A stretch of 64,000 bases of DNA from Escherichia coli. Its GTDB lineage: Bacteria > Pseudomonadota > Gammaproteobacteria > Enterobacterales > Enterobacteriaceae. The first letter of the stretch is position 1, and each line of letters starts with the position of its first letter. Under the pieces are notes generated by a model. That model worked only from the letters and a program-made list of their open reading frames with translations. It made no database searches and was not told the origin of the DNA. This document shows, piece by piece, positions 11,780 to 54,271 of the stretch. Position numbers and translations under genes: made by a program. The stretch is from assembly GCF_029227855.1 (NCBI RefSeq), contig NZ_CP074356.1; one strand, written 5' to 3'.

Positions 11780-11789
11780 CGTGCAGCCG

Positions 11790-27076: not shown

Positions 27077-27080
<4 letters not shown>
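26430..27080 (+). CDS. casE: crRNA endoribonuclease Cas6e (CasE)
   Basis: Track ORF 26292-27080; start at ATG after AGGAGG RBS (MYLSRITLHTGQLSPAQLLHLVDRGEYVMHQWLWDLFPG..., 216 aa); C-terminal GCGLM-type motif. Confidence 0.85.
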
Positions 27081-28290
<1,210 letters not shown>

Positions 28291-28386: not shown

Positions 28387-29025
28387 GTGTTCCCCGCGCC
28401 AGCGGGGATAAATCGAGATCACCGTGTTAAATAACCGATTGAACGCCGTGTTCCCCGCGCCAGCGGGGATAAATCGGCCAGGCCAATACAGTTGGCGAAG
28501 AAGCGAAGGTGTTCCCCGCGCCAGCGGGGATAAATCGACACCGGGCTGGATAAAAAAACTATCGGGAAAGTGTTCCCCGCGCCAGCGGGGATAAATCGCC
28601 GTTTGATAGCTGTTCACGCTGGCTGATGCCGTGTTCCCCGCGCCAGCGGGGATAAACCGCGCAGTTCGCTACCGAGCGTGGTTTGCTGGTCGTGTTCCCC
28701 GCGCCAGCGGGGATAAACCGGCGCACAGCGACGCGAAATCAACGAAAATTTAGTGTTCCCCGCGCCAGCGGGGATAAACCGATTGCCAGATACTGTGTAT
28801 ATCCACCGACTAAGTGTTCCCCGCGCCAGCGGGGATAAACCGCAGGGAAACCGTTCGTACTTATCGACCTCAACGTGTTCCCCGCGCCAGCGGGGATAAA
28901 CCGAAGGGGACGGCTACGGGACGCCGCCTATTGATGTGTTCCCCGCGTCAGCGGGGATAAACCGGACGCACTGGATGCGATGATGGACATCACTTGGAGT
29001 TCCCCGCCCCTGCGGTAGAACTCCC
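28387..29025 (+). CRISPR. Type I-E CRISPR array (cas-associated), 10 spacers
   Basis: Ten 29-bp repeats at a 61-bp period (28387 ... 28936) plus a degenerate terminal repeat at 28997-29025; ten unique 32-bp spacers. Repeats 1-4 end AAATCG, repeats 5-10 end AAACCG. Confidence 0.95.
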
Positions 29026-37910: not shown

Positions 37911-39050
37911 ATGAGCGCGGGAAGCCCAAAATTCACCGTTCGCCGCATTGCGGCTTTGTCACTGGTTTCGCTATGGCTGGCAGGCTGTTCTGACACTTCA
38001 AATCCACCGGCCCCGGTCAGCTCCGTTAATGGCAATGCGCCTGCAAATACCAATTCTGGTATGTTGATTACGCCGCCGCCGAAAATGGGGACGACGTCTA
38101 CAGCTCAGCAACCGCAAATTCAGCCGGTACAGCAGCCACAAATTCAGGCAACTCAACAACCGCAAATCCAGCCGGTGCAGCCAGTAGCTCAGCAGCCGGT
38201 ACAGATGGAAAACGGACGCATCGTCTATAACCGTCAGTATGGGAACATTCCGAAAGGCAGTTATAGCGGCAGTACCTATACCGTGAAAAAAGGCGACACA
38301 CTTTTCTATATCGCCTGGATTACTGGCAACGATTTCCGTGACCTTGCTCAGCGCAACAATATTCAGGCACCATACGCGCTGAACGTTGGTCAGACCTTGC
38401 AGGTGGGTAATGCTTCCGGTACGCCAATCACTGGCGGAAATGCCATTACCCAGGCCGACGCAGCAGAGCAAGGAGTTGTGATCAAGCCTGCACAAAATTC
38501 CACCGTTGCTGTTGCGTCGCAACCGACAATTACGTATTCTGAGTCTTCGGGTGAACAGAGTGCTAACAAAATGTTGCCGAACAACAAGCCAACTGCGACC
38601 ACGGTCACAGCGCCTGTAACGGTACCAACAGCAAGCACAACCGAGCCGACTGTCAGCAGTACATCAACCAGTACGCCTATCTCCACCTGGCGCTGGCCGA
38701 CTGAGGGCAAAGTGATCGAAACCTTTGGCGCTTCTGAGGGGGGCAACAAGGGGATTGATATCGCAGGCAGCAAAGGACAGGCAATTATCGCGACCGCAGA
38801 TGGCCGCGTTGTTTATGCCGGTAACGCGCTGCGCGGCTACGGTAATCTGATTATCATCAAACATAATGATGATTACCTGAGTGCCTACGCCCATAACGAC
38901 ACAATGCTGGTCCGGGAACAACAAGAAGTGAAGGCGGGGCAAAAAATAGCAACCATGGGTAGCACCGGAACCAGTTCAACACGCTTGCATTTTGAAATTC
39001 GTTACAAGGGGAAATCCGTAAACCCGCTGCGTTATTTGCCGCAGCGATAA
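37911..39050 (+). CDS. nlpD: Murein hydrolase activator lipoprotein NlpD (LysM + M23 peptidase-like)
   Basis: 379-aa ORF with lipoprotein signal (LWLAGCSD), Q/P-rich repeats, LysM and M23-like C-terminal domain; its 3' part is expected to hold the main rpoS promoter (established knowledge, not read directly). Confidence 0.9.
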
Positions 39051-39112
39051 ATCGGCGGAACCAGGCTTTTGCTTGAATGTTCCGTCAAGGGATCACGGGT
39101 AGGAGCCACCTT

Positions 39113-40105
39113 ATGAGTCAGAATACGCTGAAAGTTCATGATTTAAATGAAGATGCGGAATTTGATGAGAACGGAGTTGAGGTTTTTGACGAAAAGGCCT
39201 TAGTAGAAGAGGAACCCAGTGATAACGATTTGGCCGAAGAGGAACTGTTATCGCAGGGAGCCACACAGCGTGTGCTGGACGCGACTCAGCTTTACCTTGG
39301 TGAGATTGGTTATTCACCACTGTTAACGGCCGAAGAAGAAGTTTATTTTGCGCGTCGCGCACTGCGTGGAGATGTTGCCTCCCGCCGCCGGATGATCGAG
39401 AGTAACTTGCGTCTGGTGGTAAAAATTGCCCGCCGTTATGGCAATCGTGGTCTGGCGTTGCTGGACCTGATCGAAGAGGGCAACCTGGGGCTGATCCGCG
39501 CGGTAGAGAAGTTTGACCCGGAACGTGGTTTCCGCTTCTCAACATACGCAACCTGGTGGATTCGCCAGACGATCGAACGGGCGATTATGAACCAAACCCG
39601 TACTATTCGTTTGCCTATTCACATCGTAAAGGAGCTGAACGTTTACCTGCGAACCGCACGCGAGTTGTCCCATAAACTGGACCACGAACCAAGTGCGGAA
39701 GAGATCGCAGAGCAACTGGATAAGCCAGTTGATGACGTCAGCCGTATGCTTCGTCTTAACGAGCGCATTACCTCGGTAGACACCCCGCTGGGTGGTGATT
39801 CCGAAAAAGCGTTGCTGGACATCCTGGCCGATGAAAAAGAGAACGGTCCGGAAGATACCACGCAAGATGACGATATGAAGCAGAGCATCGTCAAATGGCT
39901 GTTCGAGCTGAACGCCAAACAGCGTGAAGTACTGGCACGTCGATTCGGTTTGCTGGGGTACGAAGCGGCAACACTGGAAGATGTAGGTCGTGAAATTGGC
40001 CTCACCCGTGAACGTGTTCGCCAGATTCAGGTTGAAGGCCTGCGCCGTTTGCGCGAAATCCTGCAAACGCAGGGGCTGAATATCGAAGCGCTGTTCCGCG
40101 AGTAA
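39113..40105 (+). CDS. rpoS: RNA polymerase sigma factor RpoS (sigma-38), apparently intact
   Basis: Track ORF 39077-40105; start at [40 protein letters not shown]... (330 aa); sigma-70 family regions 2-4; no internal stop. Confidence 0.95.
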
Positions 40106-40120
40106 GTAAGCATCTGTCAG

Positions 40121-40153
40121 AAAGGCCAGTCTCAAGCGAGGCTGGCCTTTTTG
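40121..40153 (+). terminator. Rho-independent terminator of rpoS
   Basis: Stem AGGCCAG...CTGGCCT (40123-40129 / 40142-40148) followed by TTTTTG, 16 bp after the rpoS stop. Confidence 0.6.
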
Positions 40154-40154
40154 T

Positions 40155-40875
40155 TGTGCACAGAAAACCCCCAGCTAGGCTGGGGGTTCCGGAAAGCTTT
40201 CAGCTTTAAGCCAGTTATTAAAACCCCTTTTGATTTGTTAAAACACCTTGCGGTCTGGCAACTGCAAGTGTCAAACAAGAAATCAAAAGGGGGTCCCAAT
40301 GGGGAACGAAAAGAGCTTAGCGCACACCCGATGGAACTGTAAATATCACATAGTTTTTGCGCCAAAATACCGAAGACAGGTGTTCTACAGAGAGAAGCGT
40401 AGAGCAATAGGCAGTATTTTGAGAAAGCTGTGTGAGTGGAAAAGTGTACGGATTCTGGAAGCTGAATGCTGTGCAGATCATATCCATATGCTTGTGGAGA
40501 TCCCGCCCAAAATGAGCGTATCCGGCTTTATGGGATATCTGAAAGGGAAAAGCAGTCTGATGCTTTACGAGCAGTTTGGTGATTTGAAATTCAAATACAG
40601 GAACAGGGAGTTCTGGTGCAGAGGGTACTACGTCGATACGGTGGGTAAGAACACGGCGAAGATACAGGATTACATAAAGCACCAGCTTGAAGAGGATAAA
40701 ATGGGAGAGCAGTTATCGATTCCCTATCCGGGCAGCCCGTTTACGGGCCGTAAGTAACGAAGTTGGATGCAAATGTCAGATCGTGTGCGCCTGTTAGGGC
40801 GCGGCTGGTAAGAGAGCCTTATAGGCGCATTTGAAAAACCTCCGGCTATGCCGGAGGATATTTATTTCTTTTGGT
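40155..40875 (+). mobile_element. IS200-family insertion sequence (IS200/IS605 family); ends approximate
   Basis: About 0.7 kb unit with a left-end hairpin (CCCCCAGCTAGGCTGGGGG, ~40166-40188), a single Y1-transposase gene, and a right-end hairpin CCTCCGGCTATGCCGGAGG (~40838-40856) followed by a T-rich run; IS200 lacks terminal inverted repeats, so ends are estimated. Confidence 0.6.
40299..40757 (+). CDS. tnpA: IS200 transposase TnpA (HuH Y1 transposase)
   Basis: Track ORF 40248-40757; start at MGNEKSLAHTRWNCKYHIVFAPKYRRQVFY... (152 aa); HxH motif (ADHIHMLVEIPP); near-identical to recalled Salmonella IS200 TnpA. Confidence 0.85.
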   Translation: MGNEKSLAHTRWNCKYHIVFAPKYRRQVFYREKRRAIGSILRKLCEWKSVRILEAECCADHIHMLVEIPPKMSVSGFMGYLKGKSSLMLYEQFGDLKFKYRNREFWCRGYYVDTVGKNTAKIQDYIKHQLEEDKMGEQLSIPYPGSPFTGRK

Positions 40876-40939
40876 TGGGGAGCCGGTGTGTTTGTGGGCT
40901 GGATAAGCCGCGATAGCGTCTCATCCGGCAATTTGCACC

Positions 40940-41347
40940 CTATGTGTTCATCATCTTGCGCACTAGCTGCATAAACAGCTCCTGCTCTTCTCCACTCAAA
41001 CGCCCCAAAAATTCCTCATCCACGCTGTCACCTATCGGTATCGCCGCAGCAAGTATCTTTTCGCCTTCGGCAGTCAGCCAGACAAAGCGTCGCCGCTTGT
41101 CAGCGGCGTCATGTTCACGTCTGACTAAGCCACGATTTTCCATTCTTGCCAACATTTCTGCCAGCGTTGCTTTGGTGCTGACGGCTGCTTCTATCAGTGC
41201 CACCTGTTCGATACCAGGCTTATCAGCAATGGCGCGCATCACCGCGTACTGTGGTTTGGTCAGGTCAGGTAACTCGTGCTGCCAGCGGGCCGTGTGTTGC
41301 TGAAAAAGCTGTCGTAACTGATGGAACGCTTTATTTCGTAACGCCAT
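40940..41347 (-). CDS. MarR-family transcriptional regulator
   Basis: 135-aa ORF MALRNKAFHQLRQLFQQHTARWQHELPDLTKPQYAVMRAIADKPGIEQVALIEAAVSTKATLAEMLARMENRGLVRRE...; winged-helix MarR pattern; divergent from the decarboxylase operon. Confidence 0.75.
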   Translation of the reverse strand: MALRNKAFHQLRQLFQQHTARWQHELPDLTKPQYAVMRAIADKPGIEQVALIEAAVSTKATLAEMLARMENRGLVRREHDAADKRRRFVWLTAEGEKILAAAIPIGDSVDEEFLGRLSGEEQELFMQLVRKMMNT

Positions 41348-41462
41348 GTAAACTCCGGGCTAATTCTCTGTCGCTATCATAGCGGTTTTTCAGTGACGAA
41401 GAAGATGTTGTTACTTTTCAATCCTTGCCGCTGTGGAAATGAAGGAGTATGTTAATAATAAC

Positions 41463-41476
41463 GTTCGTATACGAAC
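41463..41476. promoter_or_regulatory. Perfect 14-bp palindrome GTTCGTATACGAAC, candidate operator for the MarR-family regulator
   Basis: Perfect dyad 17 bp upstream of the UbiX-like gene ATG, in the divergent intergenic region. Confidence 0.4.
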
Positions 41477-41493
41477 AATTAAGAGAGTAAGCA

Positions 41494-42087
41494 ATGAAAC
41501 TGATCGTCGGGATGACAGGGGCTACCGGTGCGCCTCTTGGTGTGGCATTACTGCAAGCGCTGCGGGAGATGCCGAATGTCGAGACTCATCTGGTGATGTC
41601 GAAGTGGGCGAAAACCACTATTGAACTGGAAACGCCTTACAGCGCTCGCGATGTTGCCGCCCTCGCAGACTTCAGCCATAACCCGGCGGATCAGGCGGCG
41701 ACCATCTCCTCAGGTTCCTTTCGTACCGACGGCATGATCGTTATTCCGTGCAGTATGAAAACGCTCGCCGGTATCCGTGCCGGTTACGCCGATGGCCTGG
41801 TAGGGCGCGCGGCGGACGTCGTGCTCAAAGAAGGCCGCAAACTAGTGCTGGTGCCGCGTGAAATGCCGCTTAGCACCATCCATCTCGAAAATATGCTCGC
41901 ACTTTCACGCATGGGCGTGGCGATGGTGCCGCCGATGCCTGCCTTTTATAACCATCCCGAAACGGTAGATGACATTGTCCACCACGTGGTAGCCCGCGTG
42001 CTGGATCAATTTGGCCTCGAACATCCCCACGCCAGGCGCTGGCAAGAATTGCCGCAGGTCCGGAATTTTTCTCAGGAGAATGAATAA
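41494..42087 (+). CDS. UbiX-like flavin prenyltransferase (decarboxylase subunit B; Pad1/KpdB/EcdB type)
   Basis: 197-aa ORF MKLIVGMTGATGAPLGVALLQALREMPNVETHLVMSKWAKTTIELE... Confidence 0.85.
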   Translation: MKLIVGMTGATGAPLGVALLQALREMPNVETHLVMSKWAKTTIELETPYSARDVAALADFSHNPADQAATISSGSFRTDGMIVIPCSMKTLAGIRAGYADGLVGRAADVVLKEGRKLVLVPREMPLSTIHLENMLALSRMGVAMVPPMPAFYNHPETVDDIVHHVVARVLDQFGLEHPHARRWQELPQVRNFSQENE

Positions 42088-43514
42088 TGGCATTTGATAA
42101 TTTACGCAGCTTTTTACAGGCGCTTGATGACCACGGCCAGTTACTGAAAATCAGCGAAGAGGTGAACGCGGAACCGGATCTGGCAGCAGCAGCTAACGCC
42201 ACCGGGCGTATCGGCGACGGCGCGCCCGCGCTGTGGTTTGACAATATTCGCGGCTTTACCGATGCCCGTGTGGCGATGAATACCATCGGTTCCTGGCAGA
42301 ACCACGCGATTTCCCTCGGCCTGCCGCCAAACACCCCGGTCAAAAAGCAGATTGATGAGTTTATCCGCCGCTGGGATAACTTCCCCATTGCCCCGGAGCG
42401 CCGCGCCAATCCAGCCTGGGCGCAGAACACCGTCGATGGCGACGAGATCAACCTGTTCGATATCCTGCCGCTGTTTCGTTTAAACGATGGCGATGGCGGT
42501 TTCTATCTCGACAAAGCGTGCGTGGTTTCCCGCGATCCGCTCGACCCGGATAACTTCGGCAAGCAGAACGTCGGTATCTATCGTATGGAAGTGAAGGGCA
42601 AACGTAAGCTCGGCCTGCAACCGGTGCCGATGCACGATATCGCCCTGCATCTGCATAAAGCGGAAGAACGCGGTGAAGATCTGCCGATTGCCATCACCTT
42701 GGGTAACGATCCGATCATCACGCTGATGGGGGCCACGCCGCTGAAATATGATCAGTCCGAGTATGAAATGGCAGGCGCGCTGCGCGAAAGCCCGTACCCG
42801 ATCGCCACCGCCCCGCTGACCGGTTTTGATGTGCCGTGGGGCTCGGAAGTGATCCTCGAAGGGGTCATCGAAAGCCGTAAACGCGAAATCGAAGGGCCGT
42901 TCGGTGAGTTTACCGGGCACTACTCCGGCGGGCGTAACATGACCGTGGTGCGTATCGATAAAGTCTCTTACCGCACCAGGCCGATTTTCGAATCGCTGTA
43001 CCTCGGCATGCCGTGGACAGAAATCGACTACCTGATGGGGCCAGCCACCTGCGTGCCGCTGTATCAGCAACTGAAAGCCGAGTTCCCGGAAGTGCAGGCG
43101 GTGAACGCCATGTACACCCACGGCCTGCTGGCGATTATCTCCACCAAAAAACGCTACGGTGGCTTTGCCCGCGCGGTGGGCCTGCGTGCGATGACCACGC
43201 CACACGGTCTGGGCTACGTGAAGATGGTGATTATGGTCGATGAAGACGTTGATCCGTTCAACCTGCCGCAGGTGATGTGGGCGCTCTCTTCGAAAGTGAA
43301 CCCGGCAGGGGATTTGGTGCAGTTGCCGAATATGTCCGTGCTGGAACTCGACCCTGGCTCAAGCCCGGCCGGTATCACCGACAAGCTGATTATCGACGCC
43401 ACCACGCCTGTCGCCCCGGACAACCGTGGTCACTACAGCCAGCCGGTGGTGGATTTACCGGAAACCAAAGCCTGGGCTGAAAAACTGACCGCTATGCTGG
43501 CCGCACGTAAATAA
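42087..43514 (+). CDS. UbiD-family non-oxidative aromatic acid decarboxylase (subunit C)
   Basis: 475-aa ORF MAFDNLRSFLQALDDHGQLLKISEEVNAEPDLAAAANATGR...; UbiD family by recalled similarity. Confidence 0.85.
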   Translation: MAFDNLRSFLQALDDHGQLLKISEEVNAEPDLAAAANATGRIGDGAPALWFDNIRGFTDARVAMNTIGSWQNHAISLGLPPNTPVKKQIDEFIRRWDNFPIAPERRANPAWAQNTVDGDEINLFDILPLFRLNDGDGGFYLDKACVVSRDPLDPDNFGKQNVGIYRMEVKGKRKLGLQPVPMHDIALHLHKAEERGEDLPIAITLGNDPIITLMGATPLKYDQSEYEMAGALRESPYPIATAPLTGFDVPWGSEVILEGVIESRKREIEGPFGEFTGHYSGGRNMTVVRIDKVSYRTRPIFESLYLGMPWTEIDYLMGPATCVPLYQQLKAEFPEVQAVNAMYTHGLLAIISTKKRYGGFARAVGLRAMTTPHGLGYVKMVIMVDEDVDPFNLPQVMWALSSKVNPAGDLVQLPNMSVLELDPGSSPAGITDKLIIDATTPVAPDNRGHYSQPVVDLPETKAWAEKLTAMLAARK

Positions 43515-43524
43515 GGAGAACAAG

Positions 43525-43761
43525 ATGATTTGTCCACGTTGTGCCGATGAACAGATTGAAGTGATGGCGAAATCGCCGGTAAAAGATGTCTGGACGGTCT
43601 ACCAGTGCCAGCATTGCCTCTATACCTGGCGCGATACCGAACCGCTACGCCGCACCAGCCGCGAACATTACCCGGAAGCGTTTCGTATGACGCAGAAAGA
43701 CATTGATGACGCGCCAATGGTGCCGAGCATTCCGCCGCTGCTGGCGGAAGGTAAGCGCTAA
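43525..43761 (+). CDS. Decarboxylase small subunit D (zinc-ribbon-like, four Cys)
   Basis: 78-aa ORF MICPRCADEQIEVMAKSPVKDVWTVYQCQHCLYTWRD... with CxxC...CxxC; third gene of the B-C-D operon, 10 bp after subunit C. Confidence 0.7.
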   Translation: MICPRCADEQIEVMAKSPVKDVWTVYQCQHCLYTWRDTEPLRRTSREHYPEAFRMTQKDIDDAPMVPSIPPLLAEGKR

Positions 43762-43763
43762 AT

Positions 43764-43795
43764 AAAAGGTCCGATGCCCATCGGACCTTTTTATT
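43764..43795. terminator. Bidirectional hairpin terminator between convergent decarboxylase operon and ygbN
   Basis: AAAAGGTCCGATG...CATCGGACCTTTTT: GC-rich hairpin flanked by A-run and T-run. Confidence 0.5.
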
Positions 43796-43799
43796 AAGG

Positions 43800-45164
43800 T
43801 CAAATTACCGCCCATACGCACCAGGTAATTAAGAATCCGGTAAAACCGAGAATGGTCGTTAACACTGTCCAGGTTTTCAGACCGTCTGCTACCGACAACC
43901 CCAGATATTTGGTCACAATCCAGAACCCTGAGTCATTAATATGTGACGCGCCAAGCCCACCAAAGCAGGCTGCCAGCGTCACCAATACGCACTGAATCGG
44001 ATTCAATCCCATCACCGCTTCTGAGAGTAACCCGCCGGTTGTCAGGATTGCTACGGTTGCTGACCCCTGCGATGCACGCAGCGCCAGTGAAATAATAAAT
44101 GCGGCTGGTAACAGAGGCAGGTCAATCATTTGTAGCATGTTGGCAAGGGCTTTGCCGACGCCCGATTCCACCAGCACTTTGCCAAATACCCCTCCAGCAC
44201 CAGTAACCAAAATCACTACCGCCGCGGTGGGAAGGGCTGAGCCCATAATGTCGCTGGTGTGTTGTAAGCTCCAGCCGCGACGTAAAGCCAATAACCAGAA
44301 TGCCAGCACCAGCGCAATCATTAGAGCTACCATTGGTGAGCCGATCAGCTGTAGCGTACCAAGCAGGGGATGCGAAGGCGGCATCAGTGTTGCGGAAACC
44401 GTACCCGCCATGATAATCGCGATAGGAATAACAATTAGCGAGGTGACCAGCGCGACGCCCGGTGGATTTATTTTATCGCTTAATTTTGTCGCGCCTTCCT
44501 CACTGGCCGGAGCCAGTTGCATCTGTTCCAGTACTTCCACCGACATCGCATATTGGCACTTATTGATTATTTTCGCTGCAAAGTAGCCAACAATCCCTAC
44601 GGGAATAGAAATCGCAATACCGATGATGGTTAGCCAGCCGATGTCTGCGTGGAGTAACCCCGCTGCGGCGACAGGGCCTGGATGCGGCGGTACCGCCACA
44701 TGAACAGTTAGCATGATTCCAGCGACAGGCAGGCCAAATTTGAGTGGCGATATTTTGGCAACCTTGGCAAAACCGTAAATGATTGGCGCAAGAATAATAA
44801 AGCCGACATCAAAGAAGACGGGAATACCGAGGAAGAACGCTGCCAGAGTCAGCGCAGCGATAGTTCGTTTGTCACCTAACTTGCGACTGAAATAATTAGC
44901 CAGTGACTCTGCACCACCAGAGTGTTCGATCATACGCCCCAGCATAGCGCCCAGACCAATAATAATAGTGACGGAACCAAGCACACCGCCCATCCCGGCG
45001 ATCATCACTTTACCCACTTCGCCCGCCGGTATACCCGCCGCAAGTGCGACTAACAGGCTGACGAGGAGCAGAGCAACGAATGGTTGTACCTTTGCCTTGA
45101 TGACCAGCAGCAACAGCATGATTACGCCAGTTAACGCAATGCATAACAATGTAATTGTGGACAT
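43800..45164 (-). CDS. ygbN: GntP-family permease
   Basis: 454-aa polytopic membrane ORF MSTITLLCIALTGVIMLLLLVIKAKVQPFVALLLVSLLVALAAG... Confidence 0.85.
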   Translation of the reverse strand: MSTITLLCIALTGVIMLLLLVIKAKVQPFVALLLVSLLVALAAGIPAGEVGKVMIAGMGGVLGSVTIIIGLGAMLGRMIEHSGGAESLANYFSRKLGDKRTIAALTLAAFFLGIPVFFDVGFIILAPIIYGFAKVAKISPLKFGLPVAGIMLTVHVAVPPHPGPVAAAGLLHADIGWLTIIGIAISIPVGIVGYFAAKIINKCQYAMSVEVLEQMQLAPASEEGATKLSDKINPPGVALVTSLIVIPIAIIMAGTVSATLMPPSHPLLGTLQLIGSPMVALMIALVLAFWLLALRRGWSLQHTSDIMGSALPTAAVVILVTGAGGVFGKVLVESGVGKALANMLQMIDLPLLPAAFIISLALRASQGSATVAILTTGGLLSEAVMGLNPIQCVLVTLAACFGGLGASHINDSGFWIVTKYLGLSVADGLKTWTVLTTILGFTGFLITWCVWAVI

Positions 45165-45252
45165 GGGAAACCCTGTCTGAAAGTTATAGTTAACCTACCC
45201 CATCCGTAGATGGGGGGATGTATGGGTACGTTGTAATTAGGGATTTAACGAA

Positions 45253-46029
45253 TTAGCGCCAGGCGTCAAACCAGCCAAGCCCTTCTTCGGTGAGGCCACG
45301 AGGTTTATATTCACAACCGATCCAGCCCTGATATCCCACCTCATCGAACAGGCGGAACAGCCACGGATAGTTGATTTCTCCATCGTCCGGTTCATGTCGA
45401 TCAGGTAGTCCGGCAATTTGTACGTGCGCATATTTCCCGGCGTAGTCGCGGATTAAATGCGTCAGGTTGCCATCTACTTTTTGCGCATGAAAAGTATCTA
45501 GTTGAATAAACACGTTATCTCGCGCAACTTCTTCAACAATAGCCAGTGCCTGATACTGGCTGGAGAAGAGATAATGAGGCTTAACGCCGGGGCTGAGTGC
45601 TTCAACTAATATTCGCTTGCCGTGTGGCGCAAAGCGGTCGGCAGCGTAGCGGAGATTATCGATAAATACTGCCCTGTACCGTTCAGCATCTTCGCCAGCG
45701 GGCACGACGCCTGCCATCACATGGACTTGTTCACAATTGAGCGCCAATGCATATTCCAGTGCCAGGTCGATGTCTGCGTGTGCTTCGTGCTCACGTCCGG
45801 GAAGGGCGGATAATCCCCATTCCCCCGCATTAATATCTCCGGGAGCGGTATTGAACAGCGCCAGTGTCAGATGGTTTTGCTCCAGTTGCTTTTGGATTTG
45901 CAGGGTGGAGTAGTCATAGGGAAACAGAAATTCCACAGCATCGAACCCGGCTTTTCGCGCTGCGGCGAAGCGTTCAATAAAAGGCACTTCGGTGAACATC
46001 ATGGATAAATTAGCTGCAAAACGAGGCAT
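45253..46029 (-). CDS. ygbM: Hydroxypyruvate-isomerase-like (2-oxo-tetronate isomerase type) TIM-barrel protein
   Basis: 258-aa [43 protein letters not shown]... Confidence 0.85.
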
Positions 46030-46033
46030 TGCA

Positions 46034-46672
46034 TTAACTCCTTAATTCCGCAATTTCACCTGCGGTCAGATAACGGATCGGGCGGTCACCGAGAATAAAA
46101 ATCAGCTTTGCCGTTTCCTCCAGCTCTTCCATATTGTTGGCGGCTTCTTGCAGGCTTTCACCGCAAACCACTGGGCCATGATTTGCCAGTAAAAAAGCCT
46201 GATTGTCTGCTGCCAGTTCCGCCAGATCCTGTGCGATGCGTTTATCGCCCGGTCGGTAATAAGGCACCAGCGGGACATTTCCCATCCGCATCACCACGTA
46301 TGGTGTGAACGGACGAATAACGTTGCTGCTGTCCAGCCCTTGCAGGCAGGAAAGCGCCGTCGACCATGTGCTGTGCAAATGCACCACCGCTTTACAGCGC
46401 GGATTGTTGCGATACAGCGCCAGATGAAAGAGCACCTCTTTCGAGGGTTTGTCACCACTTAACCATTCGCCATCCGCGGCGACTTTGGAAAGCCGCTGCG
46501 GATCGAGATTGCCCAGGCATGAACCTGTCGGTGTCGCCAGTAAATTCCCGTCAGGTAAAAGCAGCGACAAATTGCCAGCCGAACCGGTTGCATAGCCGCG
46601 CTGAAAGAATGAACTGGCAATCCGCGTCATCTCCTCTCGCAAAGACTGCTCTACTTTTGCGAAATCGCTCAT
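46034..46672 (-). CDS. ygbL: Class II aldolase/adducin-family protein (3-oxo-tetronate 4-phosphate decarboxylase type)
   Basis: 212-aa [45 protein letters not shown]... Confidence 0.85.
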
Positions 46673-47931
46673 GATAAAAACTCTCTTTGGGCTCGTGAAA
46701 AAAAGGCTTCATCACCGAAGTTGCCAGATTTAAGGGCGAGTGAGACAGGTTTATCCAGTGCGTTTACCCACGGCACGCCGGGAGAAATGGTTGGGCCAAT
46801 ATGAAACCCTTTTATTCCCAGGCTCTGTGTGACTACGCCGGAGGTCTCACCGCCTGCGACAATAAAGCGTGTCACGCCTTCCGCTGCTAACCGCGCCGCT
46901 AGTTGAGAAAACAGTGTTTCTACTGCCTGACTGGCTTTATGTGCACCGTATTGCTGTTGAATTGCTGCCAATGCGTCAGTGCTGGCAGTGGCAAAAACCA
47001 GTGGAGCAAGTACACTTTCCTGGCCCAGAACCCACTCTGCCAGTTCGTGTGCATAAGCGGCCAGAGTTTCAATTGAGAGGCAGCGTGCCACATCAACTTC
47101 ACGGGCTGGTGCAATTTGACGGTAATGTGCTACCTGGCAGTTGGTCATTTGAGAGCATGAACCGGAGAGCACTACGCCGCGCCCAGCGAGCGGATGCCCT
47201 GCTTTGCGAGCCTGGTTACCGTTTTCTTGCGCCCACTGCCGGGCAAGGCCAATCGCCAGACCAGAACCGCCCGTTACCAGTGGGGTATCGCGCAAGGCTT
47301 CTCCCTGAATTTCCAGATGGTGTTCGGTCAGCGCATCAAGCACCGCGTAGCGGTAGCCCTCTTGCTGTAAGCGAGCCAGCTCTTGACGAACGGCATCCAC
47401 ACCTTGTTCGAAAACATGTGCCGAAACGACGCCGCAGCGCCCTGTGGATTGCGCTTCAACCAGACGGGGAAGATAGCTGTCGGTCATGGGATTTACCGGG
47501 TGATGGCGCATCCCGGATTCGGCCAGCAGTTGATTCATTACGAACAAATACCCCTGATAAACCGTACGTCCGTTGACCGGCAGGGCCGGAGAGAAGACCG
47601 TAAACGGCGTGTCGAGAGCATCCATTAATGCATCGGTAACCGGGCCGATATTACCTTTCGCCGAACTGTCGAAAGTAGAGCAGTATTTGAAATAGATCTG
47701 TTTGCAACCTTGCTGTTGCAACCAGCTCAGTGCCGCCAGCGATTGCTGTGTGGCTTCAACCACCGGACAGGAACGCGTTTTCAGGCTGATCACCAGTGCG
47801 TCGATTGCTTCCGGCATTTTACCTGTTGGAACACCGTTAATTTGTACCGTTGGTAGACCGTTTTCCACCAGAAAACTGGCGATATCCGTCGCGCCGGTAA
47901 AATCATCGGCGATAACGCCAATCTTGATCAT
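46669..47931 (-). CDS. ygbK: DUF1537-family four-carbon acid sugar kinase
   Basis: 420-aa ORF MIKIGVIADDFTGATDIASFLVENGLPTVQINGVP... Confidence 0.85.
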   Translation of the reverse strand: MIKIGVIADDFTGATDIASFLVENGLPTVQINGVPTGKMPEAIDALVISLKTRSCPVVEATQQSLAALSWLQQQGCKQIYFKYCSTFDSSAKGNIGPVTDALMDALDTPFTVFSPALPVNGRTVYQGYLFVMNQLLAESGMRHHPVNPMTDSYLPRLVEAQSTGRCGVVSAHVFEQGVDAVRQELARLQQEGYRYAVLDALTEHHLEIQGEALRDTPLVTGGSGLAIGLARQWAQENGNQARKAGHPLAGRGVVLSGSCSQMTNCQVAHYRQIAPAREVDVARCLSIETLAAYAHELAEWVLGQESVLAPLVFATASTDALAAIQQQYGAHKASQAVETLFSQLAARLAAEGVTRFIVAGGETSGVVTQSLGIKGFHIGPTISPGVPWVNALDKPVSLALKSGNFGDEAFFSRAQREFLS

Positions 47932-48836
47932 GATTTCGCTCCCGGTAGAGTGATGCCAGAGAAAATCTTGATAACTGCGCTATCGTCTTCTTTCCCGTAA
48001 CCCGCGTTACTGGCGCTGGTGAACATATTCAATGCTGTTGAGGCCAATGGCAGCGGGAAGTGCAGGGCTTTGGCTGTATCGGCAACCAGACCAAGATCCT
48101 TAACAAAAATATCGACGGCTGAATGCGGGGTGTAATCGCCATCCACCACATGACGCATCCGGTTTTCGAACATCCAGGAATTTCCGGCGGCATTGGTCAC
48201 GACGTCATACATCACATCCAGCGGGATCCCCGCACGGGCTGCAAGTGCCATCGCTTCGGCTCCGGCAGCAATATGTACGCCCGCTAACAACTGGTGAATA
48301 ATTTTTACGGTCGAACCTAGTCCCGGTTCTGCACCTATGCGATAAACTTTTCCGGCAACGGCTTCCAGCACGGGTGCCAGTCGTTCAAAGGCAATATCGC
48401 TACCGGAGGCCATGACAGTCATTTCACCGTTAGCGGCTTTTACTGCACCACCAGAAACTGGCGCATCCAGCATTTCCAGATCGAATCCAGCCAGAGCGGT
48501 AGCAATTTCTTGCGCATCAGCACTAGCGATAGTGGAAGAAACCATTACTGCCGTACCGGGTTTCAGATGTTGTGCAACGCCTGTTTCACCAAACAGCACC
48601 TGTTTAACCTGGGCCGCATTGACCACCAGCACCAGCAGAGCGTCCAGTTTTTCGGCAAACGTCGCGGCGTTATCAGAAACCCCGCAAGCACCTGCCTCTT
48701 TCAACGTAGCGCAGGCATTGCTGTTCAGGTCTGCGCCCCAGGTAGAAAGACCTGCGCGGACACATGACAGTGCTGCTCCCATTCCCATTGACCCTAAGCC
48801 AACGATACCGACATGAAACTCAGATCCCGTTTTCAT
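47928..48836 (-). CDS. ygbJ: 3-hydroxyisobutyrate-dehydrogenase-like NAD-dependent dehydrogenase (L-threonate dehydrogenase type)
   Basis: 302-aa ORF MKTGSEFHVGIVGLGSMGMGAALSCVRAGL... with Rossmann GxGxxG. Confidence 0.85.
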   Translation of the reverse strand: MKTGSEFHVGIVGLGSMGMGAALSCVRAGLSTWGADLNSNACATLKEAGACGVSDNAATFAEKLDALLVLVVNAAQVKQVLFGETGVAQHLKPGTAVMVSSTIASADAQEIATALAGFDLEMLDAPVSGGAVKAANGEMTVMASGSDIAFERLAPVLEAVAGKVYRIGAEPGLGSTVKIIHQLLAGVHIAAGAEAMALAARAGIPLDVMYDVVTNAAGNSWMFENRMRHVVDGDYTPHSAVDIFVKDLGLVADTAKALHFPLPLASTALNMFTSASNAGYGKEDDSAVIKIFSGITLPGAKS

Positions 48837-49031
48837 CTGCTCTCCTTGTTAATTTAAGTGATATTTTGTTTGATATTGTGAATATAGGCGCTGGAAGATA
48901 ACGATATGGTGAGCTGATTCACAAAAATTAACATTGTGTGTTATTTTATGTGAACTAAGCGTTAGTTGCGCCGCGCACGTTTCGCAGGCAAATAGCGTAG
49001 AATGTCAGCAGGACAAAGGAAGGAGCAAAAG

Positions 49032-49799
49032 TTGATACCCGTAGAGCGTCGCCAAATCATCCTTGAGATGGTAGCTGAAAAAGGCATTGTCAGTATTGCT
49101 GAACTAACGGACAGAATGAATGTGTCACATATGACCATTCGTCGGGATTTACAAAAACTGGAGCAGCAGGGAGCCGTTGTGCTGGTGTCCGGAGGCGTCC
49201 AGTCTCCGGGACGCGTGGCGCATGAACCTTCTCATCAGGTAAAAACTGCGCTGGCAATGACGCAAAAAGCGGCTATTGGCAAGCTGGCGGCAAGTCTTGT
49301 TCAGCCGGGAAGTTGTATCTATCTGGATGCGGGAACGACCACGCTAGCGATAGCACAGCATCTGATTCACATGGAGTCACTGACTGTGGTCACAAACGAT
49401 TTCGTTATTGCGGACTACTTGCTCGACAACAGTAATTGCACAATTATTCACACTGGCGGTGCAGTGTGTCGGGAAAACCGTTCCTGTGTCGGGGAAGCCG
49501 CTGCGACCATGCTGCGCAGCCTGATGATTGATCAGGCTTTTATTTCTGCATCGTCATGGAGTGTGCGGGGGATTTCTACGCCAGCGGAAGATAAAGTCAC
49601 GGTGAAACGGGCGATTGCCAGTGCCAGCCGCCAGCGAGTTTTGGTCTGTGATGCGACGAAATATGGTCAGGTGGCGACATGGCTGGCGTTACCATTAAGC
49701 GAGTTTGATCAGATTATTACAGACGACGGTTTGCCGGAGAGTGCCAGTCGCGCGCTGGCGAAGCAGGATCTCTCTTTGCTGGTAGCGAAAAATGAATAA
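49032..49799 (+). CDS. ygbI: DeoR-family transcriptional regulator
   Basis: Track ORF 49002-49799; start placed at TTG after AGGAGCAAAAG RBS (MIPVERRQIILEMVAEKGIVSIAELTDRMNVSHMTIRRDLQKLEQ..., 255 aa); the ATG at 49002 is an alternative. Confidence 0.8.
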   Translation: MIPVERRQIILEMVAEKGIVSIAELTDRMNVSHMTIRRDLQKLEQQGAVVLVSGGVQSPGRVAHEPSHQVKTALAMTQKAAIGKLAASLVQPGSCIYLDAGTTTLAIAQHLIHMESLTVVTNDFVIADYLLDNSNCTIIHTGGAVCRENRSCVGEAAATMLRSLMIDQAFISASSWSVRGISTPAEDKVTVKRAIASASRQRVLVCDATKYGQVATWLALPLSEFDQIITDDGLPESASRALAKQDLSLLVAKNE

Positions 49800-49849
49800 T
49801 GGCCTGCAATAACACCGGGTTACTCATGCTTCACAGAAGAAGCATGAGA

Positions 49850-50506
49850 CTACTTTATTTTATAAAATGACAGCCGCCCGCTTTTCGGCGATCCGGTATC
49901 AATATAAATCTGGTTTGCGAATGTCTGAATGTTATCAAACATCATATGTCCAAATATAAAATAATCAGCGCCGTTTATTTGTTGTAACTCGCCATTAAGC
50001 GATTTCTGCACACGATCAACAGGCCAGAGTAGTTCTCTCTCCGCTATTTCTTTGCCAAAGAGATATTCATTCCCCGGATAATCTGCATGTGCGATGACAT
50101 ATTTTATTATGTCGTTAGTGATTTCAATAATATGTGGAAGGCGATGAAATTTCAGCAACAGATTTATTGCTTCTTGTTGTTCCGTCTCATTTAATTCAAA
50201 GAACCAGTCGCCGCCGCTGGCAAGCCACATATTTCCATCGCCAGTTTCGAATGCATCAAGCGCCATCGCTTCATGGTTGCCTTTAACCGATGTAAACCAG
50301 GGCTGGTTTAACAGGCGTAGTACGTTAAGACTCTCCGGCCCACGATCAATATTATCGCCGACAGAAATAAGTAAGTCGGTTTCAGGGAAAAAAGAGAGTT
50401 GATGTAAGCGGGATTGTAATAATTGATAGTCACCATGAATATCACCAACGGCCCATATATAACGATAGTGATGGGCATTAATTTTTTGATAGCGTGTAGA
50501 TGGCAT
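49850..50506 (-). CDS. pphB: Serine/threonine protein phosphatase 2
   Basis: 218-aa ORF MPSTRYQKINAHHYRYIWAVGDIHGDYQLLQSRLHQLSF...; calcineurin-like metallophosphatase motifs (GDIHG, GDNIDRG). Confidence 0.85.
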   Translation of the reverse strand: MPSTRYQKINAHHYRYIWAVGDIHGDYQLLQSRLHQLSFFPETDLLISVGDNIDRGPESLNVLRLLNQPWFTSVKGNHEAMALDAFETGDGNMWLASGGDWFFELNETEQQEAINLLLKFHRLPHIIEITNDIIKYVIAHADYPGNEYLFGKEIAERELLWPVDRVQKSLNGELQQINGADYFIFGHMMFDNIQTFANQIYIDTGSPKSGRLSFYKIK

Positions 50507-50611
50507 GGTTTTACCCTGTAAAATAAGATTTCCTATTATACAGGGTGTTTTTATTTGATTCGTCAGTTGTCGTTAATATTCCCGATAGCAAAAGACTATC
50601 GGGAATTGTTA

Positions 50612-53173
50612 TTACACCAGACTCTTCAAGCGATAAATCCACTCCAGCGCCTGACGCGGAGTCAGTGAATCCGGGTCGAGGTTTTCCAGTGCCTCGACCG
50701 CAGGCGAAGTTTCTTCTGGTACGGACAGCAAAGACATCTGCGTGCCATCTACCTGCGTCGCGGCGGCATTCGGCGAAATGCTCTCCAGCTCACGCAGTTT
50801 CTGCCGCGCGCGTTTGATCACCTCTTTTGGCACGCCCGCAAGGGCTGCAACCGCCAGGCCGTAGCTTTTGCTCGCCGCGCCATCCTGCACGCTGTGCATA
50901 AAGGCAATGGTGTCGCCGTGCTCCAGTGCATCGAGATGCACGTTGGCGACGCCTTCCATTTTCTCCGGTAACTGGGTCAGCTCGAAATAGTGGGTGGCAA
51001 ACAACGTCAACGCTTTAATCTTATTCGCCAGATTTTCCGCGCACGCCCACGCCAGCGACAGACCATCGTAAGTGGACGTCCCGCGCCCAATCTCATCCAT
51101 CAGTACCAGACTGTACTCGGTGGCGTTATGTAAAATATTGGCGGTTTCGGTCATTTCCACCATAAAGGTTGAACGCCCGGATGCCAGATCATCCGCTGCC
51201 CCTACGCGGGTAAAGATGCGATCGATAGGTCCAATCTCGACTTTTTGTGCCGGTACATAGCTGCCGATGTAGGCCATCAGCGCAATCAGTGCGGTCTGGC
51301 GCATATAGGTACTTTTACCGCCCATATTCGGACCGGTAATGATCAACATGCGACGCTGCGGCGACAGGTTCAGCGGGTTGGCGATAAACGGCTCATTCAG
51401 CACCTGTTCAACCACCGGATGGCGGCCTTCGGTGATGCGAATACCCGGTTTATCAATAAAGGTCGGGCAGGTGTAGTTCAGGGTATAGGCCCGTTCCGCC
51501 AGGTTCACCAGCACGTCGAGTTCCGCCAGTGCGCTCGCGCTCTGTTGCAACGCTTCCAGATGCGGCAACAGCAGGTCGAACAGCTCTTCATAAAGCTGTT
51601 TTTCCAGTGCCAGTGCTTTGCCTTTTGAAGTGAGAACTTTGTCTTCGTACTCTTTTAGCTCTGGAATAATGTAGCGCTCGGCGTTTTTCAGCGTCTGGCG
51701 ACGCATGTAATTGATGGGTGCCAGATGGCTTTGTCCACGGCTGATCTGAATGTAATAACCATGAACCGCGTTAAAGCCGACTTTCAGGGTGTCCAGGCCA
51801 GTACGTTCACGCTCGCGGACTTCCAGACGCTCCAGATAATCGGTCGCGCCGTCAGCCAGCGCGCGCCACTCATCCAGCTCTTCGTTATAGCCCGGTGCGA
51901 TAACACCACCGTCGCGTACCAGCACCGGCGGTGTGTCGATGATTGCTCGCTCCAGCAGATCGCGCAGCTCGGCAAACTCGCCCATTTTTTCACGCAGCGC
52001 CTGTACCGGAGCGCTATCGACATTTTCTAACTGCGCGCGCAGCTCCGGCAGTTGCTGGAAAGCGTGACGCATACGGGCCAGATCGCGTGGGCGAGCAGTT
52101 CGTAAAGCCAGACGCGCCAGAATACGTTCCAGGTCGCCGACCTGACGCAGTACCGGCTGCAGCTCGGCGGTGAAATCCTGCAATGCGCCAATAGTTTGCT
52201 GGCGCTCAAGCAAGACGCGGGTATCGCGCACTGGCATATGCAGCCAGCGTTTCAGCATACGGCTGCCCATCGGCGTGACGGTGCAGTCGAGCACAGAAGC
52301 CAGCGTATTTTCCGCACCACCCGCCAGGTTCTGGGTGATTTCCAGATTACGACGCGTCGCGGCATCCATAATGATGCTGTCCTGCTCACGTTCCATGGTG
52401 ATGGAACGAATATGCGGCAGAGTCGTACGTTGGGTATCTTTCGCATACTGCAACAGACAACCGGCAGCACAAAGTCCGCGCGGCGCGTTCTCGACGCCAA
52501 AACCGACCAGATCGCGGGTGCCAAATTGCAGATTCAACTGCTGGCGCGCGGTGTCGATTTCAAACTCCCACAGCGGGCGACGGCGCAGGCCGCGACGGCC
52601 TTCAATTAACGACATTTCAGCAAAATCTTCTGCATACAGCAGTTCCGCAGGATTAGTGCGTTGCAGTTCTGCCGCCATCGTTTCCCGGTCAGCCGGTTCG
52701 CTCAGGCGAAAACGACCGGAGCTGATATCCAGCGTCGCGTAGCCGAAACCTTTGCTGTCCTGCCAGATAGCCGCCAGCAGGTTGTCCTGACGCTCCTGCA
52801 ACAGGGCTTCATCGCTGATGGTGCCTGGCGTAACGATACGCACAACTTTGCGCTCAACCGGACCTTTGCTGGTCGCCGGATCGCCAATTTGTTCGCAGAT
52901 GGCAACGGACTCGCCCTGATTCACCAGTTTGGCGAGGTAGTTTTCCACCGCATGGTAGGGAATCCCCGCCATCGGGATCGGCTCTCCCGCCGAAGCACCG
53001 CGTTTGGTCAGTGAAATATCCAGCAGTTGCGATGCGCGTTTTGCGTCGTCATAAAACAGTTCATAAAAATCACCCATCCGGTAAAACAGCAGGATCTCGG
53101 GATGCTGGGCTTTCAGCTTGAGATATTGCTGCATCATGGGCGTATGGGCATCGAAATTTTCTATTGCACTCAT
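50612..53173 (-). CDS. mutS: DNA mismatch repair protein MutS
   Basis: 853-aa [47 protein letters not shown]...; Walker [10 protein letters not shown]. Confidence 0.95.
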
Positions 53174-53459
53174 GGGGTTATGTCCGGTTCCCTGATATTA
53201 AATGGGGTGTGATGGTTTTTATTTTCGTTGTAATCACATAAGGCGCACATGATACCGGAGTTAATCATTTCAGGGGAAGAAGCGAACGGCGAGTTCTTGA
53301 GGGTGATTCCGGGAAAGATGCTGTTTTGCAGCTTTTGCGTGATGATTATGAAGCAAGTACGCAAAATTGCGTCGGTTGAATAAACCTCCTCCTTCAGAGC
53401 CATAGTCCCCTTTCAAATTAAGTTGTAATATAAATACACCTTAAGAGTATGGAGGCAGC

Positions 53460-53804
53460 ATGTCCGGCAAGCGTATCTCTCGTGAAAAACTGACGATTAA
53501 AAAAATGATCGATCTTTATCAAGCGAAATGCCCGCAGGCGTCAGCGGAGCCGGAGCATTACGACGCGCTGTTTGCCTACGCGCAAAAGCGGCTGGATAAA
53601 TGTGTGTTCGGCGAAGAGAAACCAGCCTGTAAGCAGTGTCCGGTGCACTGTTACCAGCCTGCAAAGCGTGAAGAGATGAAACAGATTATGCGTTGGGCCG
53701 GGCCGCGAATGCTGTGGCGTCATCCGATCTTAACCGTGCGTCATCTCATCGATGACAAGCGTCCGGTGCCGGAGTTGCCAGAAAAATATCGTCCAAAGAA
53801 ATAA
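53460..53804 (+). CDS. ygbA: Nitrous-oxide-stimulated-promoter family protein
   Basis: 114-aa ORF MSGKRISREKLTIKKMIDLYQAKCPQASAEPEHYDALFAYAQKRLDKCVFGEEKPACKQCPVHCY...; K-12 synteny next to mutS. Confidence 0.8.
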   Translation: MSGKRISREKLTIKKMIDLYQAKCPQASAEPEHYDALFAYAQKRLDKCVFGEEKPACKQCPVHCYQPAKREEMKQIMRWAGPRMLWRHPILTVRHLIDDKRPVPELPEKYRPKK

Positions 53805-53842
53805 ATCTGCCGGAGAGCCATACTCTCCGGCAAATAAGGCGT

Positions 53843-54271
53843 TTACGCTTTGGTGGCAATCAGGATGGCTGATGCTTTGATCAATGCAATAACGCGCGAG
53901 CCAGTGGTGAGTTTCATTTCATCCTGACTTTCATTTGTTACCACTGCCACAATTTCAAAACCCGCATCCGTTTTGATATGGACAGTGGCGTTCACTGCGC
54001 CTTCGGTGATTGTCGACACGCTGCCAGCAAACTGGTTGCGAGCAGAGAATTTCAGTCCACAGTCTTCCGTTGCCAGCGTTACCCACGGGGCTTTAATCAG
54101 GGCAATCGCTTCTTTCCCTTTCGCCAGACCCAGAGCCTGCTGGCTGCTGTGAGTCACAATTGCCACCAGCTTTGCACCACCTGCCAGCGTCAGTTCTACT
54201 TCGTCATTCACCGCGCCCATTGCTACTGCGCTAACTGTTCCGGTTAATTGATTTCTTGCTGAAACTGCCAT
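53843..54271 (-). CDS. Tandem TOBE/Mop-domain protein (molbindin-like)
   Basis: Track ORF 53843-54310; start placed at the ATG following an AAGGAGG RBS (MAVSARNQLTGTVSAVAMGAVNDEVELTLAGG..., 142 aa); two repeats of the SARNQ...G.V Mop signature; 45 bp downstream of the fhlA stop, same strand. Confidence 0.7.
   Translation of the reverse strand: MAVSARNQLTGTVSAVAMGAVNDEVELTLAGGAKLVAIVTHSSQQALGLAKGKEAIALIKAPWVTLATEDCGLKFSARNQFAGSVSTITEGAVNATVHIKTDAGFEIVAVVTNESQDEMKLTTGSRVIALIKASAILIATKA

Follow-up and report, generated by a model that had tools for sequence, protein, structure and literature searches.

In the 64-kb window (the whole stretch of Escherichia coli DNA that was analyzed), six uninterrupted genes occupied positions 43800–49799 between ecdD and pphB, with ygbN, ygbM, ygbL, ygbK, and ygbJ on the minus strand and ygbI running divergently on the plus strand. 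We consider it very probable that these genes constitute the intact, wild-type version of E. coli's chromosomal module for L-threonate catabolism. L-threonate is a product of ascorbate breakdown.

Neither the list of open reading frames nor the alignment to K-12 revealed an internal stop or frameshift in any of the six genes. Each protein matched its own NCBIfam equivalog model over the full model length and above the curated cut-off, and all six carried the expected Pfam domains. The sequence-only reading had named these six genes and called all of them full length; the equivalog and Pfam matches confirmed the identities, and coverage of the models from end to end confirmed the lengths. Careful alignment found no frameshift in this window, and it did find one in the ygbK of the K-12 reference. 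The 6-kb stretch was 100% identical to that of E. coli JNEC-KY178, in which RefSeq annotates the same six genes. The catabolic genes adjoined one another in the same orientation, a transporter gene (ygbN) and a regulator gene (ygbI) were linked to them, and the ygbI-ygbJKLMN unit was also observed in E. albertii, Serratia, Pluralibacter, Pantoea, Entomohabitans, Succinivibrionaceae, and a Desulfovibrio, with more than 10 loci outside the genus. The cluster is an ordinary, already described E. coli feature, and its routine annotation was confirmed.

The first enzyme, the L-threonate 2-dehydrogenase LtnD of the beta-hydroxyacid dehydrogenase family, was encoded by ygbJ (47928–48836, minus strand, 302 aa; PDB 3G0O). 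It matched NF043037 with 474 bits (cut-off 350; model positions 3–296 of 297) and contained NAD_binding_2 plus NAD_binding_11, and the paralogue models stayed below their own cut-offs. The stop codon of ygbJ overlapped by 4 nt the start of ygbK (46669–47931, minus strand), which encoded the full-length 3-oxo-tetronate kinase OtnK of 420 aa. This DUF1537 protein (SBD_N plus NBD_C) scored 594 bits against NF043035 (cut-off 350; 1–417 of 418), with PF07005 at residues 4–228 and PF17042 at residues 253–411. Its residues 1–418 aligned with the Salmonella structure 3DQQ and residues 4–419 with H. influenzae HI1011 (1YZY), and its C-terminus retained the GVPW and KSGNFG motifs conserved in 3DQQ, 1YZY, and 5DMH. 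The start of ygbL (46034–46672, minus strand, 212 aa) overlapped the ygbK stop (ATGA, 4 nt). Its product, the Aldolase_II decarboxylase OtnC (PDB 6VOP), matched NF043034 with 335 bits (cut-off 250), and fuculose-phosphate aldolase models fell below their own cut-offs. After a 4-nt gap followed ygbM (45253–46029, minus strand, 258 aa), encoding the 2-oxo-tetronate isomerase OtnI, a xylose-isomerase-like TIM barrel (AP_endonuc_2, PF01261) with 396 bits against the OxoTetrIsom model NF043033 (cut-off 325); the E. coli structure is PDB 1K77. Orthologues of the enzymes with solved structures aligned over their full length. The GntP-family permease gene ygbN (43800–45164, minus strand, 454 aa) lay 88 nt downstream of ygbM, and its product matched NF007332 with 824 bits (cut-off 524; 1–454 of 454) and Pfam GntP_permease with 515 bits. 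The spacing suggested that ygbJ, ygbK, ygbL, and ygbM form one translationally coupled unit.

The proposed link to four-carbon acid-sugar catabolism agreed with the four-step pathway of Zhang et al. (2016), whose enzyme chemistry we took from the summaries in PMC12540250 and PMC12994016; the organisms whose enzymes were assayed there were likewise taken from secondary sources. The same two reports describe the pathway steps and the loss of L-threonate growth upon gene deletion, and in vivo as well as in vitro validation is listed for b2736, b2738, and b2739 (PMC12506659). For orthologues, the literature thus records both the conversion to dihydroxyacetone phosphate and growth with L-threonate. 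On this scheme, L-threonate would enter through YgbN, the presumed L-threonate/H+ importer, and LtnD would oxidize it to 2-oxo-tetronate. OtnI would isomerize the latter to 3-oxo-tetronate, OtnK would phosphorylate that compound at C4 using ATP, and OtnC would decarboxylate the resulting beta-keto acid to dihydroxyacetone phosphate, which would feed glycolysis. Growth of this strain on L-threonate is predicted from its gene content. As far as the summaries of Zhang et al. (2016) describe them, their L-threonate/D-erythronate clusters (e.g., that with the H. influenzae HI1011 kinase, PDB 1YZY) share with this one LtnD, OtnI, the DUF1537 kinase OtnK, OtnC with its class II aldolase fold, and a GntP permease; the present cluster has no D-erythronate dehydrogenase gene. 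The three-step L-threonate pathway (2-OtnK with 2-OtnC; Guo et al., 2024) likewise begins with LtnD and ends with dihydroxyacetone phosphate. However, it has no isomerase and uses a decarboxylase with an F_bP_aldolase domain, whereas OtnI is present here and OtnC is an Aldolase_II protein.

Model matches and annotation detected no D-erythronate 2-dehydrogenase gene among the six genes between ecdD and pphB. We take the Haemophilus cluster to include such a gene. The sequence-only reading had connected the gene set with L-threonate as well as D-erythronate; the presence of LtnD upheld the former, and the lack of the second dehydrogenase in the cluster spoke against the latter, so that only L-threonate use is predicted from the cluster. 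It is nevertheless conceivable, if unlikely, that the cluster also serves D-erythronate, through promiscuity of LtnD or a dehydrogenase encoded elsewhere. Both substrates meet at 2-oxo-tetronate, and the three enzymes that act after it would therefore serve either one, but D-erythronate entry requires a separate D-erythronate 2-dehydrogenase (PMC12994016). None of the cluster's genes, which number exactly six between their neighbors ecdD and pphB, encodes this enzyme.

In K-12 MG1655, the same six genes (b2735–b2740) occur in the same order, orientation, and position by pphB-mutS. Nucleotide identity to K-12 was ~99.3%, and the proteins were 98–100% identical and equal in length in five of six cases, with the same residue as K-12 at 254 of 255 positions in YgbI, 301 of 302 in YgbJ, 212 of 212 in YgbL, 256 of 258 in YgbM, and 451 of 454 in YgbN. 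The exception was YgbK, which had 420 aa here, in Salmonella, in Haemophilus, and at 26 other loci, and 388 aa in K-12. A lineage-specific 1-nt deletion at codon 383 of the K-12 gene (the T at 46783 is missing) yields a 388-aa product that ends in ISPACRG and is devoid of the conserved C-terminus GVPW...KSGNFG; as a result, 91 nt ahead of ygbL go untranslated. This allele also accounts for the seeming interruption of the K-12 operon between ygbK and ygbL. The literature searched contained no report of the K-12 ygbK frameshift, which may still have been described elsewhere. It is a tentative reading, held at somewhat less than even confidence, that K-12 otnK is a lineage-specific null or crippled allele and that the K-12 data on this cluster describe a pathway whose kinase step is broken.

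The regulatory gene ygbI (49032–49799, plus strand) encoded a DeoR-family repressor of ygbJKLMN, with 255 aa from a TTG start, 484.5 bits against NF040890 (cut-off 400), an N-terminal HTH_DeoR domain (PF08220), and a C-terminal DeoRC sensor domain (PF00455). The longest reading frame began at ATG 49002 and comprised 265 aa (the old "f265"). TTG 49032 was the better-supported start: GGAAGGAG precedes it, RefSeq adopts it, and Pluralibacter and Pantoea have an ATG at the aligned position. In K-12, ChIP-exo and RNA-seq established YgbI as a repressor: deletion of ygbI de-represses ygbJKLMN, the operon is tightly repressed in glucose medium, and the single ChIP-exo site lies between ygbI and ygbJ, overlapping the ygbJ promoter (PMC8464067).

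The divergent control region (48837–49031, 195 bp) contained four TCAC-N7-AACA motifs found by motif search (48847–48861, 48867–48881, 48919–48933, and 48939–48953), which are candidate YgbI operators. These were four of the six matches in the 64-kb window, for which 2.0 were expected in total, and three of the motifs together with a TGTGA half-site were retained from Escherichia to Serratia and Pantoea. A CRP-like site, GGTGAgctgatTCACA (48908–48923), was centered at −41.5 relative to a −10-like TATATT (48886 to 48881, minus strand); this geometry was derived by hand. A scan for consensus promoters did not exceed the number of hits in shuffled sequence and picked up no ygbJ promoter. We infer that the TCAC-N7-AACA motifs may be YgbI sites and GGTGAgctgatTCACA a CRP site. 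YgbI would then bind the intergenic region through the four repeats, from roughly −80 to +30, and block a ygbJ promoter that would be class II CRP-dependent. With a genome-version offset presumed to be 1978, the reported 31-bp ChIP-exo site mapped to ~48954–48984, where it adjoined the motifs without covering them. The perfect palindrome AACTAAgcgTTAGTT (48953–48967), which lies under the mapped site, was rejected as an operator, as it was not conserved even in E. albertii. In the K-12 control region, three SNPs lay near the candidate operators and the CRP-like site, and another one at the −10-like element.

In K-12, the cluster has been linked to no phenotypes other than growth on L-tartrate (PMC8464067) or meso-tartrate after loss of ygbI, and these leave room for another physiological substrate. 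The ygbI deletion gained L-tartrate growth, from which its authors proposed that YgbI controls tartrate catabolism (PMC8464067), and in the meso-tartrate evolution study ygbI mutations and ygbJKLMN over-expression arose in both independent lines. The nearest paralogue models also belonged to tartronate-semialdehyde reductases for LtnD and hydroxypyruvate isomerase for OtnI. The true substrate could accordingly be L- or meso-tartrate or another C4 dicarboxylic or sugar acid, with the L-threonate activity merely annotated from orthologues. Yet the scores of the four enzymes exceeded the L-threonate-pathway equivalog cut-offs by a wide margin and fell well short of the paralogue-model cut-offs. 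The tartrate phenotypes, moreover, require loss of the repressor, the authors of the evolution study call the activity promiscuous and "underground", and the data come from K-12, whose truncated kinase makes them uninformative on the complete pathway. We therefore regard a tartrate-like substrate as improbable.

Several observations would fit a cryptic, decaying remnant that is structurally intact here and unused. The 6.1-kb cassette that contains the cluster (43769–49850) was missing from 824 of 5426 complete E. coli genomes (~15%), including the O157:H7 type. IS elements interrupted the cluster in strains such as H2 (ISVsa5) and H43 (ISApl1), and the K-12 copy is frameshifted and tightly repressed in glucose medium (PMC8464067). 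However, 84% of the complete genomes kept at least 80% of the cluster. In this strain the six reading frames were intact, with 0–5 residue differences per protein from K-12 apart from the YgbK tail, and the conservation of gene order and control-region motifs across genera argues for purifying selection. The remnant explanation is thus very improbable, and an intact L-threonate module is the reading we retain.

The cassette was bounded by terminators on both sides. At the left edge, a bidirectional hairpin terminator shared with K-12 (43764–43792) lay between the convergent ecdD and ygbN. It folded at −17.3 kcal/mol (z −4.2) on one strand and at −18.4 kcal/mol (z −4.9) on the other, with a T run after the hairpin in both cases. 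The left junction fell at 43761/43762 against K-12, 43768/43769 against O157:H7, and 43811/43812 against B2/ST131; the K-12 and O157 junctions flank or enter this terminator. The right boundary of the variable segment had been placed at about 43800, which was within 40 bp of all three junctions. The segment missing in K-12 (ecdBCD/marR/IS200) ends at 43761, and the cluster did lie, as supposed, beyond it toward mutS. At the right edge, a hairpin (49823–49848; −20.9 kcal/mol, z −5.1) separated the convergent ygbI and pphB. Homology to O157:H7 restarted at 49851, and divergence from K-12 jumped from ~0.7 to 5–8% at this ygbI/pphB end, marking a second mosaic junction.

The order rpoS, slyA-like marR, kpd/ecdBCD, o454 (ygbN), and mutS was that of pattern IV of the mutS-rpoS/o454-nlpD region (EPEC E2348/69 type; Ewers et al., 2014, PMC4209514), with the slyA-like regulator and kpd/ecdBCD located between rpoS and o454 as annotated by RefSeq in the strain with 100% identity. 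It differed by an extra IS200C copy (40159–40864) between the rpoS terminator and marR. An Rfam scan of 39000–54000 gave no match inside the ygb cluster; its sole match was the IS200-associated STnc490 (40166–40289). The 3.6-kb segment of IS200, marR, and ecdBCD that separates ygbN from rpoS is missing in K-12. An insertion ("island") of the ecdBCD segment in this strain was rejected, as Entomohabitans has the same mutS-ygb-ecd-marR-rpoS order. Deletion in K-12 is thus the simpler reading, and the layout is probably ancestral because it is common to another genus.

These results assign the strain to a mutS-rpoS mosaic class that has already been published and indicate that the ygb block is gained and lost as a unit, with a recombination junction at either end. 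It cannot serve as the fixed boundary anchor for which it had been recommended, being itself a variable cassette; ygbN (o454) is usable as a typing anchor only where strains carry it. K-12 would also mislead as the yardstick of an intact cluster, its ygbK appearing to be a defective allele. If that is true, the split into ygbJK, ygbLM, and ygbN in RegulonDB, the "tartrate" role of YgbI, and any missing L-threonate growth in K-12 would all be affected, and natural isolates with the 420-aa kinase would possess an L-threonate-inducible, CRP-dependent catabolic operon that is absent from K-12.

The interval 43800–49799 was packed by six long ORFs, with hardly any spare DNA. Five lay on the minus strand, namely ygbN (43800–45164, 454 aa), ygbM (45253–46029, 258 aa), ygbL (46034–46672, 212 aa), ygbK (46669–47931, 420 aa) and ygbJ (47928–48836, 302 aa), and ygbI was divergent on the plus strand and ended at 49799. 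The ygbJ/ygbK and ygbK/ygbL junctions were 4-nt ATGA-type overlaps, and gaps of 4 and 88 nt separated ygbL from ygbM and ygbM from ygbN. The longest ygbI ORF began at ATG 49002 (265 aa). TTG 49032 (255 aa) was the better start, because a Shine-Dalgarno sequence (GGAAGGAG) was located 5 nt upstream, RefSeq chose this codon, and it lined up with the ATG start in Pluralibacter and Pantoea. Stable hairpins flanked the block (43764–43792 and 49823–49848).

All six proteins matched their own NCBIfam equivalog models end to end and well over the curated cut-offs, among them YgbJ as L-threonate dehydrogenase (474 bits, cut-off 350), YgbK as 3-oxo-tetronate kinase (594, cut-off 350), YgbM as 2-oxo-tetronate isomerase (396, cut-off 325), YgbN as a GntP family transporter (824, cut-off 524) and YgbI as the repressor YgbI (484.5, cut-off 400). 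The paralogue models (tartronate-semialdehyde reductase, hydroxypyruvate isomerase, fuculose-phosphate aldolase, gluconate permeases and other DeoR regulators) all remained under cut-off. Pfam architectures were consistent with these identities, and full-length alignments were obtained with solved orthologue structures of the kinase (3DQQ, 1YZY), YgbM (1K77), YgbJ (3G0O) and YgbL (6VOP). The ORF listing and these matches bore out the sequence-only reading, in which six full-length genes had been given the same identities. The 6-kb stretch was 100% identical to E. coli JNEC-KY178, a human clinical isolate from Japan, where RefSeq annotated the same genes. RefSeq/PGAP labelled ygbM 'HPr family phosphocarrier protein', though it encodes a TIM-barrel isomerase. 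The label arises because NCBIfam NF007441 (PRK09989) bears that name and outscored NF043033, the 2-oxo-tetronate isomerase model (588 vs. 396 bits); this looks like a naming error, now in thousands of genomes.

The careful alignment that the intact-gene claim called for revealed a one-nucleotide frameshift in ygbK of K-12, not of the window. The five other proteins were equal in length to those of MG1655 with 0–3 residue differences, and YgbK had 420 aa in the window vs. 388 aa in MG1655. In the nucleotide alignment, K-12 ygbK was without one T in codon 383 (window 46783; about 2863482 in NC_000913.3; about 6983 in L002, the MG1655 locus), after which the frame ran through four aberrant residues and ended, with a 91-nt untranslated gap between the shortened gene and ygbL. 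The 36 residues lost from the C-terminus included GVPW and KSGNFG. Three solved homologues, those of Salmonella and Haemophilus among them, had kept these motifs, and a distantly related DUF1537 kinase still showed them in recognisable form. In other taxa, the 26 related loci that were not truncated all matched the query YgbK to residue 411–420. The exact K-12 66-mer with the deletion allele was found in 371 of the 4579 genomes having ygbK, and the 60 matches listed were all K-12 laboratory derivatives or strains with K-12 DNA. Judged by the C-terminal conservation, the related loci and the 66-mer distribution, the wild-type ygbK is that of the window, and the frameshift belongs to the reference strain K-12. 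The frameshift accounts for the RegulonDB split of ygbJK from ygbLM at a '92-bp intergenic' gap, and also for the transcript across ygbK-ygbL that was observed nonetheless (PMC4168707). A literature search of limited scope found no mention of it.

In the four-step route published by Zhang et al. (2016), as outlined in PMC12540250 and PMC12994016, LtnD (YgbJ) would oxidise L-threonate to 2-oxo-tetronate, OtnI (YgbM) would isomerise this to 3-oxo-tetronate, OtnK (YgbK) would phosphorylate the latter, and OtnC (YgbL) would decarboxylate the OtnK product to DHAP. The genes b2736, b2738, and b2739 are listed with both in vivo and in vitro validation (PMC12506659). We infer the substrate of YgbN from context. 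Tartrate has been suggested as the role of the cluster, and K-12 ygbI mutants point to it; however, this use depends on repressor loss, was seen in a kinase-truncated K-12 background, and is regarded as a promiscuous activity by its own authors. The description 'cryptic remnant' agrees with the recurrent losses of the cluster, but it does not fit 84% retention, intact ORFs, and a gene order and control motifs conserved across genera. As to D-erythronate, it enters the same route only via a separate D-erythronate 2-dehydrogenase (PMC12994016). No gene for that enzyme was found in the ygb cluster, whose neighbours were ecdD and pphB, and therefore only L-threonate use is predicted from it. Of the two acids to which the gene set had been linked, L-threonate was the one with a complete enzyme set in the cluster.

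By ChIP-exo, the whole K-12 genome had a single YgbI site, which lay in the intergenic region of ygbI and ygbJ and overlapped the ygbJ promoter; ygbI deletion de-repressed ygbJKLMN (PMC8464067). In the window, the motif TCAC-N7-AACA occurred four times in this 195-bp region (48847, 48867, 48919, and 48939), out of six matches in the 64-kb window vs. 2.0 expected by chance. Three of the four copies were conserved in an alignment of Escherichia, Entomohabitans, Pluralibacter, Pantoea and Serratia. In the same alignment, TGTGA-N6-(T/G)C(A/G)C and a −10-like TATATT were conserved as well. Measured from the first base of the −10 element, the centre of the CRP-like site (48908–48923) lay 29.5 nt upstream and therefore at position −41.5, a class II geometry. 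The motif copies, their conservation and this geometry point to a putative CRP-dependent ygbJ promoter with YgbI operators on either side, at about −80 to +30. With an assumed offset between genome versions, the reported ChIP-exo interval would correspond to about 48954–48984, beside the outermost repeat. K-12 differed from the window at four control-region positions (48887, 48904, 48913, and 48924); three were in or beside the operator-like and CRP-like sites, one adjoined the −10-like element, and ST131 sided with the window at three.

The right boundary of the variable island had been placed at about 43800, which was correct to within 40 bp: the K-12 junction was at 43761, 39 nt past the ygbN stop codon and at the base of the terminator that the window shares with K-12. 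The segment 40163–43761 was extra compared with K-12 and comprised IS200C with STnc490 RNA, a MarR/SlyA-like regulator and the hydroxyarylic acid decarboxylase genes ecdBCD. O157:H7 retained the ecd segment to 43768 and resumed at 49851, the whole 6.08-kb ygb block being missing. B2/ST131 diverged left of 43812, within the last ygbN codons, and carried flavodoxin and MBL-hydrolase genes in place of the window's segment. The island junction therefore depends on the comparator. At least 80% of the cluster was present in 4576 of 5426 complete genomes and 824 had no match, so that the proposed anchor is not fixed but itself a variable cassette. The block was ~0.7% diverged from K-12, with a step to 5–8% exactly at the ygbI/pphB border; this jump and the comparator junctions indicated that both cluster ends are mosaic junctions. 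The regions 49850–52160 (pphB and the 3′ two-thirds of mutS) and 53361–53760 were unusually divergent, with 92–96% identity to K-12, ST131 and O157:H7, next to a ygb block 99.3% identical to K-12. The sharp step at the ygbI/pphB terminator is indicative of mosaicism through recombination in mutS-pphB.

The IS200C copy (40159–40864; Rfam STnc490 match at 40166–40289) directly followed the rpoS terminator and was missing from O157:H7 and most of the pattern-IV genomes compared. In JNEC-KY178, an IS1A (4346–5113 of its locus) had inserted in the nlpD-rpoS interval, a short distance ahead of the rpoS start, and would split rpoS from the nlpD-internal promoter; the window (39113–39121) had no IS1A and was otherwise near-identical. 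The type I-E cas operon was complete from cas3 to cas2 (about 19730–28290), had a hok/gef gene upstream and was located between two CRISPR arrays (about 2050–2690 and about 28390–28960). BLAST offsets suggest that the window is one 61-bp repeat-spacer unit short of JNEC-KY178 in each array.

The four layouts compared are the published patterns I–IV of the o454-nlpD/mutS-rpoS region, and the window had that of the EPEC E2348/69 type (pattern IV), plus an added IS200 (PMC4209514). Entomohabitans teleogrylli, of another Enterobacteriaceae genus, showed the same order, mutS-ygbI-ygbJKLMN-ecdDCB-marR-rpoS-nlpD (5156–20129 of its locus), so that the composite layout of the window would most simply be ancestral, with K-12 and O157:H7 as deletion derivatives. 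Unlike the window, it had no pphB between mutS and ygbI, which suggests that the Escherichia lineage acquired pphB later. The ygb cluster is an already known, ordinary feature, and its earlier interpretation was essentially right; the useful corrections are that D-erythronate use is not predicted, that the cassette is variable, and that the frameshift lies in K-12, not in this strain.
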